The notes below the pieces were generated by a model that saw only the letters and a program-made list of their open reading frames with translations, was not told the origin of the DNA and searched no databases. DNA of 35,991 bases from a virus. The DNA lies in UHGV virus genome UHGV-0222783; one strand, 5' to 3'. Position numbers and translations under genes: made by a program. This document shows, piece after piece, positions 29,508 to 35,813 of the stretch; position 1 is the first letter of the stretch; each line of letters opens with the position of its first letter.

Positions 29508-30074
29508 ATGAGCAATGAGACTAATGGGATTGATGAAATGTTTAGCTTGAACGCTGCCAAAGCTGGAGTCGCAATAGGTTTGCTATTACAGCAAGCTTCT
29601 GCGTTCAGTTGTGAGGTGGTTGTTACTGATAACGTTCAGCACGCTTACCATCAATCCTCATTCAGCAGTGAACGGGCTAATGATGAGCTTCATGAGGCGG
29701 TGTCTTCGATTAAAGAATTGTCTCGAATGCTGAAATACGCTTATCGTGTTCTTGCAAACGCTACCGATGAGAATGTAGACAATGTGTTGTCTATCATTGA
29801 ACCAGAAAAGTCTCGATTGATAGAGCATCAATTGAGAGGACTTGAAGGGGCAATGAAATCGGTATTCAAAGAAGCTTCTGCTGATTTTAAAGAGATCGCA
29901 AGAGATATCTATATCGTTGTTGCTGATGCCAGATCTGCCGTAACCAACCTGAATAGTCTTATTAAACAACGCTCATGTGTTCCGGTTGTTTTTGATAGTT
30001 CCGTAGATATGGCTGGTTTGCGTGCGCTTGCTGAGCACGGGACTCGTGTGTTTCACTCTGGTAACTTCCACTGA
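29508..30074 (+). CDS. hypothetical protein (188 aa), first gene of an accessory two-gene operon
   Basis: ATG 29508 after strong SD AAGGAGG. Predicted helical; no family recognised by eye. Confidence 0.5.
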   Translation: MSNETNGIDEMFSLNAAKAGVAIGLLLQQASAFSCEVVVTDNVQHAYHQSSFSSERANDELHEAVSSIKELSRMLKYAYRVLANATDENVDNVLSIIEPEKSRLIEHQLRGLEGAMKSVFKEASADFKEIARDIYIVVADARSAVTNLNSLIKQRSCVPVVFDSSVDMAGLRALAEHGTRVFHSGNFH

Positions 30075-30082
30075 GGTAAAAC

Positions 30083-30532
30083 ATGCAAGTAACCGTGGAA
30101 TATAATCAGGATAGTTTTGACTATTTTTTCTCCCCGGTTTTTGTTGAGTTTCCTGATTTAAAACAAACACTTGTAGATGATTTTATCATCTACAAGTCTA
30201 CGGGAACGTTGCCCAGCTATTTTGGCAGAGACACCTCTTATCATCGACCTCCTGATATTGAAGATGCAGGCCTTATGCACCTTCATTTAGCAATTGGTGA
30301 AAATAAATTTGAGCCAATAAAAAATGGCACAGATATCAGCACACCGCAAAAGTTGCAGTGGCATAAAACATCCAATACCGCTCTCGTTTATGCACAAAAT
30401 CTTTTTGATGAGAACAGGTATTCATTGATTGCTCTTTTTCATCCTGTAGCTCACATGTCTGCTAACAATCATAATAGAATGAGAGTGTTAGCAGGGTATG
30501 CGAGAGACTTTAGAAACACTATGTTTGACTAA
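30083..30532 (+). CDS. hypothetical protein (149 aa), second gene of the accessory operon
   Basis: ATG 30083, 8 nt after the upstream stop. His-rich motifs (HLHLA, FHPVAH). Followed by an intrinsic terminator. Confidence 0.5.
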   Translation: MQVTVEYNQDSFDYFFSPVFVEFPDLKQTLVDDFIIYKSTGTLPSYFGRDTSYHRPPDIEDAGLMHLHLAIGENKFEPIKNGTDISTPQKLQWHKTSNTALVYAQNLFDENRYSLIALFHPVAHMSANNHNRMRVLAGYARDFRNTMFD

Positions 30533-30533
30533 A

Positions 30534-30556
30534 CCCACCGTCAGGTGGGTTTTTTA
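30534..30556 (+). terminator. intrinsic terminator between convergent operons
   Basis: cccacc-gtca-ggtggg hairpin then tttttt, placed between the plus operon end (30532) and the minus ClpP-like gene end (30581). Confidence 0.6.
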
Positions 30557-30580
30557 TAAGGAGTAATCATGATTTACCCA

Positions 30581-31117
30581 TCAAACAACCCACCAGTTTG
30601 CCTGATTGGATGCCAGCCTTGCAGTTTTTATGGAATTAATTATGCCATGCTCAAGAGCCTTGTTAGCATCCAAAATGGTCGAGTCTGCTATCAGGGATGC
30701 CCACCTAATATGGGTTCCGATGTCGATATTGAACGTCTCAACGAAGCGATCAAGATCGTTATCGAGGCATTTCCCGTACTCTCTCAATCTGGCATGGTCG
30801 GCGGCTGGGGAGGCAAAGCACCATAATAGAGGATGTAACAGGAATCTTGATAATGGGTTTGCGAAACGTTCTGAGCCAGCCAGGAAAACGATATTAGCTA
30901 TGGATTCAACATTGCTTATGTTGTGAGTTCTAACGGTAACAGGGAGTGACTTAAGAAAGTTATACGCAGTAAAGCCAGCAGCAGTTTCCCCTCCCTGACT
31001 TGATATATGGATATTTAATTCAGTTGCGCCTTGAGATAATGCGGTGAGACAGTGGTTCTGAAGTTGCCCAACAGTGGCAGTGTTAACAGGGCATAAGAAA
31101 TGAATTGTGTGCAGCAT
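30581..31117 (-). CDS. ClpP-family serine peptidase homolog (178 aa)
   Basis: By-eye alignment to E. coli ClpP: [23 protein letters not shown] vs [51 protein letters not shown] vs [32 protein letters not shown]. The catalytic Ser and His positions appear conserved. ATG overlaps the Mnt-like stop (TAATG). Confidence 0.6.
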   Translation of the reverse strand: [178 protein letters not shown]

Positions 31118-31365
31118 TATTTTTCATCCTTAGCATACATGGTCTTTAGCGTCTCAAGTAGCGCCTCTTTGAATTTATCAGCTTCTTGCTGAGCAAATGA
31201 CTCAACTGACTTTGGCGACCTATCTTCATCAATCGCGGCTTGCAAAATCATGACGATCTCGGAGTTAACAGAGCGACCATTTTTTGATGCTCTGACAGCA
31301 AGAGCCTCGCGTAAAGATTCAGGGATTCTTACCGTAGTTGGAGAAATTGACACACCCTTTGCCAT
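31117..31365 (-). CDS. Mnt/Arc-type ribbon-helix-helix repressor
   Basis: MAKGVSISPTTVRIPESLREALAVRASKNGRSVNSEIVMIL... is an RHH motif (compare P22 Mnt ..REKLKFRAEANGRSMNSELLQIV). ATG at 31365. Confidence 0.7.
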   Translation of the reverse strand: MAKGVSISPTTVRIPESLREALAVRASKNGRSVNSEIVMILQAAIDEDRSPKSVESFAQQEADKFKEALLETLKTMYAKDEK

Positions 31366-31388
31366 ATAACACCTTTGGTATTCAATTT

Positions 31389-31441
31389 GATAGCAAAGTG
31401 TATGCAAAAAAATTTTGACTAGATATACTCACTTTGCTATC
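31389..31441. promoter_or_regulatory. divergent promoter/operator region with 12-bp perfect inverted repeat
   Basis: gatagcaaagtg (31389..31400) and its reverse complement cactttgctatc (31430..31441) bracket a TTGACT -35-like hexamer, between divergent RHH repressor genes. Confidence 0.5.
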
Positions 31442-31479
31442 TTTTGTATTCGAAAAGAGTTGTTTGCGTGGAGGGTAAC

Positions 31480-31632
31480 ATGGAGAAAGAAATAAGTAAG
31501 ATTTTGGTAAGGATGCCGCAGTCGTTAAAGGATGCTATCGGTAGCAGGGCAAAGGAAGAGTGCAGGTCGTTTAACTCAGAGGTTATCAAGCGCCTGATAG
31601 ACAGCCTGAAGAGAGAGGGGGTAACGGTGTGA
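31480..31632 (+). CDS. Arc-like ribbon-helix-helix repressor (50 aa)
   Basis: MEKEISKILVRMPQSLKDAIGSRAKEECRSFNSEVIKRLIDSLKREGVTV; RHH pattern (compare P22 Arc ..RWPREVLDLVRKVAEENGRSVNSEIYQRV). GGAGGG SD. Confidence 0.65.
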   Translation: MEKEISKILVRMPQSLKDAIGSRAKEECRSFNSEVIKRLIDSLKREGVTV

Positions 31633-31864
31633 TTCGCTTGGATGCAGTAGTCAAAGAGATTGCGATTACCATTTTAAGACCAAATTTTGTTCATGGCGAA
31701 TCATTTGGCACGAACGAAAAATTGAGAAGAGAAAGAGTATTCAGTGGCAAGCGCACGTTTTCAGAAGTGATGCTTGATGCGGCAAAGAAATCAAAACAGT
31801 GAAGCCCCAACTGCTGGAACAGTCAGGGCTTCGGTTGTCGGTAAATCCGTGGAGAAAAACCAAC

Positions 31865-32767
31865 ATGAATAGTATAGCAATTTTAGAAGCAGTGAACACC
31901 TCTTACGTGCCATTCAACGGTCAGCAAATTATCACCGCCATGGCTGCCGGAGTTGCATATGTTGCGATGAAGCCAATCGTTGAAAACCTCGGAATGAGCT
32001 GGTCAACGCAGCAAACAAAACTCATGAAGCAGATTAGCAAATTCAACTGTGTTCATATGAACATGGTTGCCGCTGATGGTAAGCTTCGTAAGCTACTCTG
32101 CCTTCCTTTGAAGAAGTTAAATGGATGGCTGTTCAGCATCAACCCTGAGAAAGTTCGTGCTGACATCCGCGATAAACTGATTCAGTACCAGGAAGAATGC
32201 TTTACTGTGCTGCATGACTACTGGACAAAGGGAGAGGCAGCAAATGCACGGAAGAAAACATCTGTTGATGACAGGACTCCGCTTCGTGATGCTGTAAATA
32301 TGCTAGTCAGCAAAAAGCATCTAATGTACCCAGAAGCTTATGCAATGATTCATCAGCGTTTCAATGTGGAAAGTATTGAAGAGCTTGATGCATCTCAGAT
32401 ACCACAAGCAGTAGAGTACATCCACAGGGTAGTGCTTGAAGGTGAGTTCATCGGCAAACAAGAGAAGAAAACCAACGAGCTTTCTGCAAAAGAAGCAAAC
32501 AGCCTTGTATGGCTATGGGATTATGCCAACCGCTCACAGGCATTATTCCGCGAACTGTATCCGGCGCTAAAACAAATTCAATCGAACTATTCCGGCAGAT
32601 GTCATGACTGCGGTTATGAGTTCTCCCGTATTATCGATATGGCGAGAGACGTTTTAATCAATCACACACGAGATGTTGATATCAATGAGCCAGACGGACC
32701 AACGAATCTTTCCGCATGGATGAGACTTAAGAATAAAGAATTACCTCCTTCAGTACATAATTACTGA
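31865..32767 (+). CDS. ant: antirepressor Ant (P22 Ant-like)
   Basis: [43 protein letters not shown]... resembles the P22 Ant N-terminal domain as recalled; downstream of Arc-like as in P22 immI. Confidence 0.7.
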
Positions 32768-32784
32768 CAGATAACCAACGCAAC

Positions 32785-32810
32785 GACCCAGCTTCGGCTG
32801 GGTTTTTTTA
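32785..32810 (+). terminator. intrinsic terminator after ant
   Basis: cccagc-ttcg-gctggg hairpin followed by ttttttt. Confidence 0.6.
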
Positions 32811-32867
32811 TGCCCAAAATTCACCGTGGCCATGCTGCGGCGATTCTTTGCATCTGGAGCAAATTAA

Positions 32868-35813
32868 ATGACAGACATTACAGCCAATGTGATTGTATCG
32901 ATGCCTTCGCAACTCTTCACTATGGCGCGTTCTTTTAAAGCCGTAGCCAATGGCAAAATTTATATCGGTAAAATTGACACTGATCCTGTAAATACAGAAA
33001 ACCAGATTCAGGTCTATGTGGAGAATGAAGACGGTTCTCACGTTCCTGTTTCGCAACCAATAATCATTAACGCTGCTGGATATCCGGTATATAACGGACA
33101 GATTGCCAAATTCGTTACCGTGCAAGGCCATTCTATGGCTGTTTATGATGCGTATGGTGCGCAGCAGTTCTATTTTCCTAATGTGCTGAAGTATGATCCT
33201 GATCAGTTACGGCAGCAATTAGAAGACACAGATGGAGCGAATAAATACCCAAAACTTCAGATAGCAAGATGGAGAGACAGTTATGATGTAAGAGGTTGGG
33301 GGGCTATTGGTGATGGTGTTCATGATGATACATCAGCTCTATCAGAATTACTTTCTGTTGCAACAGGTGGTGAAAAGATAGATGGGCGAGGGCTTACTTT
33401 TAAAGTATCAACTCTTCCAGATGTCAGTCGATTTAAAAATGCTCGTTTTTTATTTGAGAGAATACCGGGTCAGCCTCTTTTTTATGCTTCTGAAGATTTT
33501 ATCCAGGGAGAGTTATTTAAAATTACAGATACACCGTGGTACAACGCCTGGACGCAGGATAAAACGTTTGTATATGACAATGTCATCTATGCGCCTTTTA
33601 TGGCTGGAGACCGCCATGGTGTAAATAACCTCCATGTTGCATGGGTTCGCTCAGGAGATGACGGGAAGACCTGGACAACGCCGGAATGGCTTACAGATTT
33701 ACATGAAAACTATCCCACAGTTAACTATCACTGCATGAGTATGGGGGTTGTCAGAAATCGCCTTTTTGCTGTAATTGAGACGCGGACCGTGAGCGGAAAT
33801 AAACTGCAGGTTGCAGAGTTGTGGGATCGCCCAATGAGTCGCAGCCTTCGCGTTTATGGTGGTATAACGAAAGCAGCAAATCAGCAAGTCGCTTATATTC
33901 GCATTACTGATCACGGATTATTTGCTGGTGATTTTGTCAACTTCTCAAACTCTGGTGTTACAGGTGTTACCGGGAATATGACGGTGACTACTGTTATTGA
34001 TAAAAATACTTTTACAGTTACGACGCAAAATACCCAGGATGTGGATCAGAATAACGAGGGTAGATACTGGAGTTTTGGTACATCATTTCACTCGTCACCA
34101 TGGAGAAAAACCAGTCTTGGAACTATTCCTTCTTTTGTTGACGGAAGCACTCCTGTTACTGAGATTCACAGTTTTGCGACGATTAGCGATAACAGTTTTG
34201 CTGTTGGCTACCATAATGGTGATATTGGTCCACGCGAGCTTGGGATACTCTATTTCTCTGATGCTTTCGGTTCTCCTGGTAGCTTTGTTCGCAGACGCAT
34301 ACCTGCAGAATATGAGGCGAATGCATCTGAGCCATGTGTAAAATATTATGATGGCATTCTGTATCTGACGACCAGGGGGACATTAAGTACTCAACCCGGT
34401 AGTTCATTGCACAGAAGCTCTGATTTAGGTACATCATGGAATTCTCTTCGCTTCCCAAATAATGTTCATCACTCAAACCTTCCTTTTGCCAAAGTTGGCG
34501 ATGAGCTGATTATTTTTGGCAGTGAGCGCGCATTTGGTGAGTGGGAAGGAGGAGAACCTGATAACCGTTATGCAGGAAATTATCCAAGAACATTTATGAC
34601 CAGAGTTAACGTCAATGAGTGGAGTCTGGATAATGTAGAGTGGGTTAATGTTACTGATCAGATTTATCAGGGCGGAATAGTTAACTCTGCGGTTGGTGTT
34701 GGTTCAGTTTGTATCAAAGACAACTGGCTGTACTACATTTTCGGTGGGGAAGACTTTCTAAACCCATGGAGCATAGGGGATAACAACAGAAAATATCCTT
34801 ATGTTCACGATGGTCACCCGGCTGATTTGTATTGTTTCAGGGTGAAAATTAAACAGGAAGAATTTGTTTCAAGGGATTTTGTCTACGGAGCCACTCCTAA
34901 CAGAACGCTTCCTACTTTTATGTCGACGTCAGGCGTGAGGACGGTTCCTGTACCCGTTGATTTCACAGATGATGTTGCCGTCCAGTCACTGACTGTCCAT
35001 GCAGGTACATCAGGACAAGTTCGCGCGGAAGTCAAACTTGAGGGTAATTACGCCATTATTGCGAAGAAAGTACCGTCTGATGATGTTACCGCTCAGAGAT
35101 TAATCGTTAGCGGAGGTGAAACAACGTCTTCAGCAGATGGTGCAATGATAACGTTGCATGGTTCCGGAAGCAGTACTCCACGTCGCGCGGTATATAACGC
35201 ACTCGAACATCTTTTTGAGAACGGAGATGTTAAACCTTATCTTGATAATGTAAATGCTCTTGGTGGTCCGGGAAACAGGTTCTCGACAGTTTATCTTGGC
35301 TCCAATCCTGTGGTTACCAGTGACGGAACATTAAAGACAGAGCCGGTCTCTCCTGACGAAGCATTGCTGGATGCCTGGGGTGACGTCAGGTATATCGCTT
35401 ATAAATGGCTGAACGCTGTCGCTATAAAGGGGGAAGAAGGGGCGAGGATACATCATGGTGTAATCGCGCAGCAACTTCGTGATGTTCTTATTTCTCACGG
35501 ACTCATGGAAGAAGAAAGCACAACATGCCGCTATGCCTTTCTTTGCTATGACGATTATCCCGCAGTATATGATGACGTCATTACTGGCCAAAGGGAAATG
35601 CCGCTGACTGATAATGACGGGAGCATCATTGTTGATGAGGATGATAATCCAGTGATGGTAATGGAAGACATCATTGAGCGCGTTGAAATAACGCCAGCAG
35701 GATCTAGATGGGGGGTCAGACCTGATCTCTTATTCTATATCGAGGCAGCATGGCAGCGCAGAGAAATAGAAAGAATAAAAGCTAGGTTAGACTTAATAGA
35801 AGGGAAGCACTAA
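32868..35813 (+). CDS. tailspike: P22-type N-terminal head-binding domain fused to an endosialidase with C-terminal intramolecular chaperone domain
   Basis: 981 aa. N-terminus [42 protein letters not shown] is the P22-like particle-binding domain. Sialidase Asp-box motifs SGDDGKTW and SSDLGTSW. C-terminal region resembles the self-cleaving chaperone domain of K1-phage endosialidases. Confidence 0.8.

Follow-up and report, generated by a model that had tools for sequence, protein, structure and literature searches.

Two inverted copies of a putative repressor operator bracket the Pant-like promoter of a P22-type immI region in an Escherichia coli prophage

The immI region of phage P22 is a classic model of repressor-operator recognition. 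A region of this type lies in the window, that is, the whole stretch of 35,991 nucleotides analyzed here, where a 114-bp gap (31366 to 31479) separates divergent genes for two ribbon-helix-helix (RHH) proteins that both match the Pfam family Arc (PF03869). A first-pass annotation had described this arrangement correctly and had pointed to a long inverted repeat within the gap. The locus therefore raises the question of what the two arms of the repeat are and which of the two repressors would bind them.

The control region (31100 to 31650) was 100% identical to the chromosomes of E. coli ATCC 11775, APEC O1, and other K1/ExPEC strains, and the segment from 30500 to 32900 shared 98% identity with phage phiv205-1. 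The window represents a P22-like prophage (Lederbergvirus) carried by E. coli K1/APEC strains, with the gene order of P22, epsilon34, and phiv205-1, in which divergent mnt and arc-ant are placed between a homologue of gene 16 (DNA transfer) and the tailspike gene. The Mnt-like protein was 36% identical to P22 Mnt over residues 11 to 79, C-terminal part included, and its best PDB match was 1mnt. The Arc-like protein (PF03869, E value of 5e-12) was 39% identical to P22 Arc, and its PDB matches were Arc entries. The presence of Mnt and Arc homologues, a sar RNA, Ant, and a promoter with 21 of 29 positions identical to P22 Pant from the -35 to the -10 upheld the suggested resemblance to the P22 Pant/Pmnt switch. 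The region (Table 1) is a P22-type immI (secondary immunity) module, or "ant moron." The ant moron of the APEC O1 prophage was already listed by Villafane et al. (2008; PMC2629481), according to whom the P22 version of immI alone has been studied experimentally.

Table 1. Features of the immI module and its control region
Feature	Coordinates	Strand	Remarks
ClpP-like gene	30581..31117	-	PF00574, E value of 2e-11; start overlaps mnt stop (TAATG)
Mnt-like repressor gene	31117..31365	-	82 aa; RHH domain and C-terminal Mnt-like region; N-terminal strand ISPTTVRIP
Weak third copy of the arm	31371..31382		ACCTTTGGTATT; 8/11 specified arm positions (own count); center ~-41
Best mnt promoter candidate	31387..31395	-	Extended -10-like TGCTATCAA; inside left arm; without -35 match; weak
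Putative left operator copy (-18 site)	31389..31405		17-mer GATAGCAAAGTGTATGC; core CAAAGTG centered at 31397
A7TT tract	31406..31414	+	Abuts upstream side of -35
Pant-like sigma-70 promoter	31415..31443	+	-35 TTGACT 31415-31420; 17-nt spacer; TG 31435-31436; -10 TATCTT 31438-31443
Putative right operator copy (+18 site)	31425..31441		17-mer ATACTCACTTTGCTATC; core CACTTTG centered at 31433
Outer right position	31446..31462		GTATTCGAAAAGAGTTG; center ~+39, around predicted transcription start
Shine-Dalgarno of Arc-like gene	31470-31475	+	GGAGGG
Arc-like repressor gene	31480..31632	+	50 aa; strand SKILVRMP; first gene of Pant-like operon
orf57	31629-31802	+	57 aa; GTG start overlaps arc stop (GTGA); between arc and sar
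sar antisense RNA homologue	31798..31864	-	Rfam RF00262, 83.9 bits (gathering score 43)
Antirepressor Ant (controlled product)	31865..32767	+	P22_AR_N and P22_AR_C; ~85% DNA identity to P22 ant

Compared with P22, the module carries two extra genes, orf57 and the clpP-like gene. For orf57, which is coupled to arc and absent from P22, no Pfam or PADLOC match was obtained; phiv205-1, S10, 19SZHZ803Rt, and 611R6 have annotated counterparts that differ in length, and locus L079 shares the start sequence. The 3' hairpin of the sar homologue, at 31832 to 31801, was scored as terminator-like in the scan.

Several observations concern the wider neighborhood. The first 404 residues encoded by the tailspike gene (32868 to 35813, + strand) were 99% identical to the K1-specific endosialidase tailspike of CUS-3, and the prophage is therefore probably specific for the K1 capsule, despite an immI region unlike that of CUS-3. 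On the other side, a YafO-family toxin-like gene (30083 to 30532; PF13957, E value of 3e-22) lies downstream of a 188-aa ORF without a Pfam match, the two together spanning 29508 to 30532 on the + strand. The same pair was present in strain 19SZHZ803Rt, and it is possible that it represents toxin-antitoxin or defense cargo of the ant moron; a PADLOC scan of six neighboring proteins returned a single weak match, of the 188-aa ORF to ZorA (E value of 0.004). Within the YafO-like coding sequence, at 30169 to 30197, is a perfect 13-bp palindrome with a 3-nt loop (ACTTGTAGATGAT TTT ATCATCTACAAGT), the only other perfect inverted repeat of at least 12 bp with a short gap in the window. Weak Rfam matches to the sroH terminal hairpin were found on both strands at 30524 to 30553, between the convergent YafO-like and ClpP-like genes, and this element is probably a bidirectional terminator.

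The two arms of the repeat, GATAGCAAAGTG at 31389 to 31400 and CACTTTGCTATC at 31430 to 31441, are 12 nt long and 100% complementary. They are separated by 29 nt, and the distance between arm centers was measured as 41 bp rather than the 30 bp given in the first-pass annotation. The description of a perfect 12-bp repeat holds for this allele only, since most close relatives pair at 11 of 12 positions; the TTGACT hexamer reported between the arms was found there. When the 114 bp were resampled with a first-order Markov model, 13 of 20,000 sequences contained a perfect 12-bp inverted repeat. For the whole window and gaps of up to 60 nt, 0.21 repeats were expected by chance, and 14% of the resampled windows contained at least one. 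The exact arm 12-mer had no further copy in the 36-kb window, and copies with up to two mismatches numbered 4 in the whole window, against 3.3 expected. The repeat finder also reported that the first mnt codons, ATGGCAAAGGGTGT (31352 to 31365, - strand), resemble the arm sequence ATAGCAAAGTGTAT at 11 of 14 positions; this likeness was not conserved in 611R6 and may be due to chance.

The TTGACT hexamer is the -35 of the Pant-like promoter, the only promoter-like site on the + strand that a consensus scan called between 30400 and 32900. The left arm lies 15 to 26 bp upstream of the -35, and the right arm extends over the last eight spacer bases, TG included, into the -10, of which it takes in the first four bases. 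The spacer itself was identical to that of P22 Pant at 11 of 17 positions, a level reached by 89 of 100,000 shuffles, and the -35 and the spacing were conserved family-wide. The promoter is predicted to be strong and to drive arc-orf57-ant from a start near 31450. The A-tract upstream of the -35 appears to resemble a proximal UP element. The sequence CAAAAAAATTTTGACT was almost invariant across immI types with differing repressor strands, as would be expected of a promoter element more than of an operator. The promoters had been proposed to stand face-to-face; because the flanking genes diverge, a promoter for mnt would be back-to-back with the Pant-like promoter. The converging promoters in P22 are Pant and Psar.

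Relatives were collected as 112 loci through the Mnt alignment and 80 more, largely from the same phages, through the Arc alignment. Variation within the window type was examined in 18 distinct sequences (32 loci). The block from 31372 to 31451 had 5 variable sites in 80, compared with 10 in the remaining 34 intergenic bases, and the variable fraction among the same sequences was 0.21 for mnt and 0.14 for arc. By eye, the 80-bp block was nearly unchanged in the Serratia locus L008, though the Mnt of that locus is only ~79% identical. The mirror positions 31393 (G/T) and 31437 (C/A), which form the "n" of TGnTAT, were polymorphic, 31393 being the only variable position of the left 17-mer among window-type sequences. 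Among the relatives listed, the combinations (T,C) and (G,A) were common at these two positions and (G,C) was in the minority, while the compensated pair (T,A) was absent. Hence, perfect complementarity represents one combination of alleles and is not selected.

Twelve immI control regions from Enterobacterales prophages were aligned by hand on the -35 and searched for a CACnGTG-like 7-mer with at most one mismatch; P22 was not scored. In 8 of the 12 (the window, L008, 611R6, L067, L115, L081, L012, and L020), a 7-mer of this kind was present twice, with centers at -18 and +18 counted from the first T of the -35. As for the others, L103 had the site at +18 only, L094 at -29 only, and L024 had none. 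An automated table of more loci gave the same site layout. Further CACnGTG-type sites occurred near -36 to -41 and +34 to +40 in the aligned regions; 611R6 had exact matches at -41, -18, and +18, that at -41 being CACCGTG. In most relatives, the site is self-palindromic, with symmetry at 10 to 14 of 17 positions in the -18 17-mers, as in CTACACAGTGTAG of L115 or in ATCACAGTGTA, the site shared by 611R6 and L067. The two 17-mers of the window had self-symmetry at 6/17 and 4/17 positions and matched each other as inverted copies at 13/17. The appearance of one long inverted repeat therefore arises because the site of the window lineage (CACTTTGnTATC) has little internal symmetry and its copies are inverted. 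In L103 and L024, the two sites fit better as direct than as inverted repeats (7 versus 10 and 10 versus 14, of 17), and ATCAC-type boxes were seen in 611R6, L067, and L103.

Outside these two sites, the window retains weaker sequences. The copy near -41 overlaps the mnt ribosome-binding site (AAGGTG, - strand), which could be an alternative cause of its conservation. The outer right 17-mer has little symmetry; it was conserved in its left half, GTATTC, only, and positions 31452 and 31453 were variable among window-type sequences. In L008 (Serratia marcescens), a perfect 17-bp palindrome, GTATTCATATAGAATAC, is found ~+39 from the -35, the position of P22 Omnt. Its sequence differs from that of the L008 sites at -18 and +18, and it may be the operator of the second repressor. 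One half of it, GTATTC, is present in the window at 31446 to 31451, and a second GTATTC is present at 31378 to 31383.

A third immI type was also encountered (L079, L080, L111, L118, L169 to L200, and CUS-3, L120 1809-2338). It has a tandem pair of Mnt-like genes, of which the upstream one encodes the strand PQVNLRLP; its control region is different and carries GCGTACC-type repeats in three places: ahead of the -35, within the spacer, and where transcription starts. The other gene of the pair, a downstream mnt of P22 type or 611R6 type, has lost its own operator region. L079/L111 and CUS-3 were considered as a natural repressor swap, but with a third Mnt-like gene and a different control region they have no bearing on which protein binds the arms.

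It is very likely that the arms are operators for a repressor. They had been taken for half-sites of an operator. The relatives hold a self-palindromic CACnGTG-type site at each of the fixed offsets, -18 and +18, and each arm is probably a whole operator by this comparison. Our preferred reading, to which we give a probability of about 60%, is that the arms are two inverted copies of one RHH repressor operator of ~15 to 17 bp and that the protein binding them is most probably Mnt-like. It had further been suggested that the repeat provides half-sites for the two repressors; the sequence is the same in both arms, and it follows the N-terminal strand of the Mnt-like and not that of the Arc-like protein, which makes the Mnt-like protein the likelier binder. 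Between the window and 611R6, Arc was 86% and Mnt 65% identical, the Mnt strand changed from PTTV to PYSV, and both arms shifted in parallel from CACTTTG to CAC(A/G)GTG. The Arc strand S(K/R)ILVRMP is found in both the window and 611R6 types (SRILVRMP in 611R6) and is unlike P-x-G-x-R, leaving Mnt-like as the sole repressor in 611R6 with a strand type matching its CACnGTG sites. In many relatives, the long (Mnt-position) and short (Arc-position) proteins both carry the same Mnt-type P-x-G-x-R strand, so both repressors probably read the same sites there. N-terminal residues determine the specificity of Arc as well as that of Mnt (Knight and Sauer 1989, as cited in PMC3413123).

The covariation of strand and site is confounded by linkage, the arms being 24 bp from mnt and 39 bp from arc, and it has exceptions in L094 and L091, where P-S-R strands of the 611R6 kind go with CAAATTG or CACAATA sites. 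A simple residue-base rule, pairing P-[G/S]-R with CACnGTG and P-T-R with asymmetric sites, was rejected as a trend only, given these two loci. A symmetric tetramer would also not be expected to prefer the asymmetric CAC/TTG site of the window lineage, which speaks against Mnt-like. With 36 bp (~3.4 turns) between their core centers, the -18 and +18 sites lie on different faces of the helix. A role for the outer sites is weakened by the overlap of the -41 copy with the ribosome-binding site and by the degenerate and, in the window type, polymorphic sequence at +39.

The arms might instead be Arc-like operators, with the Arc-like protein shutting both divergent promoters after infection, the way P22 Arc acts from within the Pant spacer, and the Mnt-like protein binding elsewhere, for instance at the GTATTC boxes or at +39. 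The right arm lies in the Pant spacer like P22 Oarc, which is bound by Arc at that promoter position, and by our own count it is identical at 9 of 12 positions to the right half of Oarc plus the start of the -10. In its position, P22 Omnt is matched by the outer right site and not by the +18 site, and the second, different palindrome at +39 of L008 could be a Mnt site. The 21-mer at the Oarc position (+15) was 14/21 identical, but TATA and TTTG stand in place of its TAGA boxes, symmetry was retained in only 3 of 10 pairs, and the window spacer is asymmetric about the Oarc center (own counts). The core of the arms is that of Omnt rather than the TAGA boxes of Oarc, and the +39 position is polymorphic and degenerate in window-type phages. 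Moreover, SRILVRMP as the Arc strand is not confined to one arm type: this 611R6-type strand (K7R) is also found in L138, where Mnt and the arms are both of window type. In L067, the ATCACnGTG sites are those of 611R6, although the Arc strand, VDCIVRMS, is very different. On balance, binding of the arms by the Arc-like protein appears unlikely. An intermediate arrangement, with one Arc-like and one Mnt-like dimer side by side on each of four shared hybrid operators (-41, -18, +18, and +39), is a long shot. The inner halves of the sites (GTGTAT and ATACTCAC) were unchanged between the window and 611R6, like the Arc-like strand, while the outer halves (GATAGCAA and TTGCTATC) changed together with the Mnt-like strand; two different RHH proteins have so far been placed together on a chimeric site only with engineered ParG hybrids (PMC3413123).

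Explanations other than an operator were also weighed. Both arms end in TGnTATC, which in the right arm is the TG and -10 of the Pant-like promoter and in the left arm reads TGCTATCAA on the - strand, at the right distance for mnt with its ribosome-binding site, and the "n" is the one freely polymorphic arm position. The repeat could thus be a by-product of two divergent extended -10 promoters sharing an A/T-rich center. This would account for the TG and TAT only, whereas CACTT, conserved to the same degree, is altered in concert in the two arms of 611R6. The left "promoter" has neither a -35 match nor a T as the final base of its -10, the scan did not call it, and L115 and L081 keep the -18 site without the -10-like sequence. 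We regard this origin as improbable, and it is compatible with an operator function rather than an alternative to it. Very unlikely is pairing of the arms as an RNA or DNA hairpin (12-bp stem, 29-nt loop) acting as a terminator, processing site, or cruciform, for example on read-through from the late operon. The predicted RNA fold was no more than moderately stable, at -17.1 kcal/mol (z-score of -2.3, with 6 of 200 shuffles folding as well), and a T-rich stretch follows the right arm. Yet the stem is A/T rich and the loop very large, the structure was not called as a terminator, and no Rfam match was found in the intergenic region. The predominance of mismatched combinations at 31393/31437, with no compensated pair among the relatives listed, and the better fit of L103 and L024 to direct repeats also argue against pairing, and the Pant-like transcript would start downstream of both arms. 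An invertible promoter switch was rejected as well: the central segment was in one orientation in all listed intergenic sequences (32 window-type loci), the neighboring ORFs scanned had no recombinase domain (Pfam), and a 29-bp segment would be too short to invert. The spacings, by eye, were unsuited to CRP (TGTGA-N6-TCACA) or LexA (CTGT-N8-ACAG) boxes.

The P22 operator sequences and the Pant/Pmnt overlap used for comparison are those of the Sauer/Susskind literature; the GenBank annotation of epsilon34, with arcO and Pmnt/Pant over the same 29 bp, is consistent with them. A comparison with P22 Omnt and Oarc had been proposed, and the P22 operators themselves proved to be absent here. Omnt, a 17-bp perfect palindrome (AGGTCCACGGTGGACCT) over the Pant start, was not found in the region. 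Its core, CACnGTG, is nevertheless that of the relatives' site, and the core of the window arms is one base away. P22 and the window are alike in having an RHH operator, here a predicted one, inside the Pant spacer. P22 has one Oarc (center at +15) and one Omnt (center at +43) of different sequence and no site upstream of the -35, whereas in the window one sequence recurs at -18 and +18 and has weak copies around -41 and +39. The positional counterpart of Omnt is thus the outer right site of the window. The window also has an extra A-tract of ~11 bp and an intergenic region of 114 bp, compared with 90 bp in P22, and the DNA-facing strand residues differ (P-T-R versus H-N-R in Mnt and K-L-R versus Q-N-R in Arc).

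In other respects, the region resembles the operators of ParG (OF) and of omega from pSM19035, with several short boxes spread over the promoter. Omega binds WATCACW heptads. The orientation of the boxes varies among the relatives, being inverted in the window and direct in L103, as in arrays of the ParG/omega type; ParG accepts both direct and inverted boxes (PMC3413123). The window differs in that its sites are 18 to 36 bp apart rather than contiguous 7- to 8-bp units, and its proteins resemble Arc and Mnt most closely, rather than omega or ParG; there is no partition function.

With the arms read as Mnt-like operators, a scheme for the switch can be proposed. In a lysogen, Mnt-like tetramers on the +18 site would exclude RNA polymerase by covering the spacer with its TG and the beginning of the -10. 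Mnt-like would also occupy the -18 site at the upstream edge of the A-tract. This site and the weaker positions near -41 and +39 may contribute cooperativity or a block of the UP element, and the antirepressor would not be made. Upon infection of a naive cell, Pant would fire, and Arc-like would build up and then shut Pant off, with sar RNA dampening ant translation as in P22. As a candidate operator for Arc-like, GATATAC (31422 to 31428), the GTAT boxes, and the +39 position were considered, and no consistent symmetric site common to the window, L008, and 611R6 was found.

The weak part of this scheme is the control of mnt. No - strand promoter was called in the intergenic region by the consensus scan. 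Three weak candidates were picked by eye, namely TGCTATCAA (31395 to 31387), TTGCAT-16-TTGAAT, and TATCTA/TACAAA; none passed the scan and none was conserved across the family. The last pair corresponds to the P22-type Pmnt hexamers (-10 opposite the Pant -35), which are poor here. TGnTATCAA was kept in 611R6 and L008 but not in L115 or L081. As the -18 site overlaps the only plausible mnt promoter element, Mnt-like would probably autoregulate the mnt-clpP-like operon.

The first-pass annotation had also placed the ClpP-like gene under the switch. The overlap of the mnt stop with its start makes control through mnt plausible, and, judged from this junction, the gene is probably cotranscribed and translationally coupled with mnt. 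It was absent from S10, 19SZHZ803Rt, and 611R6, all with the same kind of switch, and is therefore cargo added downstream of mnt rather than a component of the switch. By eye, its Ser and His align with catalytic residues of ClpP. The annotation as "head maturation protease" in phiv205-1 seems unlikely at such a position. In further E. coli genomes, the gene was seen downstream of different mnt alleles, in matches that cover query positions 1 to 99 only.

The module is most likely a multi-site variant of the textbook P22 immI switch and not a new kind of system. The comparison suggests that the design is broader and probably older, with sites at -18 and +18 on either side of the -35 of a Pant-like promoter and others farther out. 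The N-terminal strand of Mnt was seen in at least 13 variants, which go together with different site sequences. If confirmed, these would form a natural set of matched RHH repressor/operator pairs on a single promoter scaffold, of use in studies of the evolution of beta-sheet DNA recognition and in the building of orthogonal repressors. The ClpP-like gene would join the genes expressed from the prophage together with Mnt, and the variation would explain secondary immunity groups among the P22-like prophages of pathogenic E. coli.
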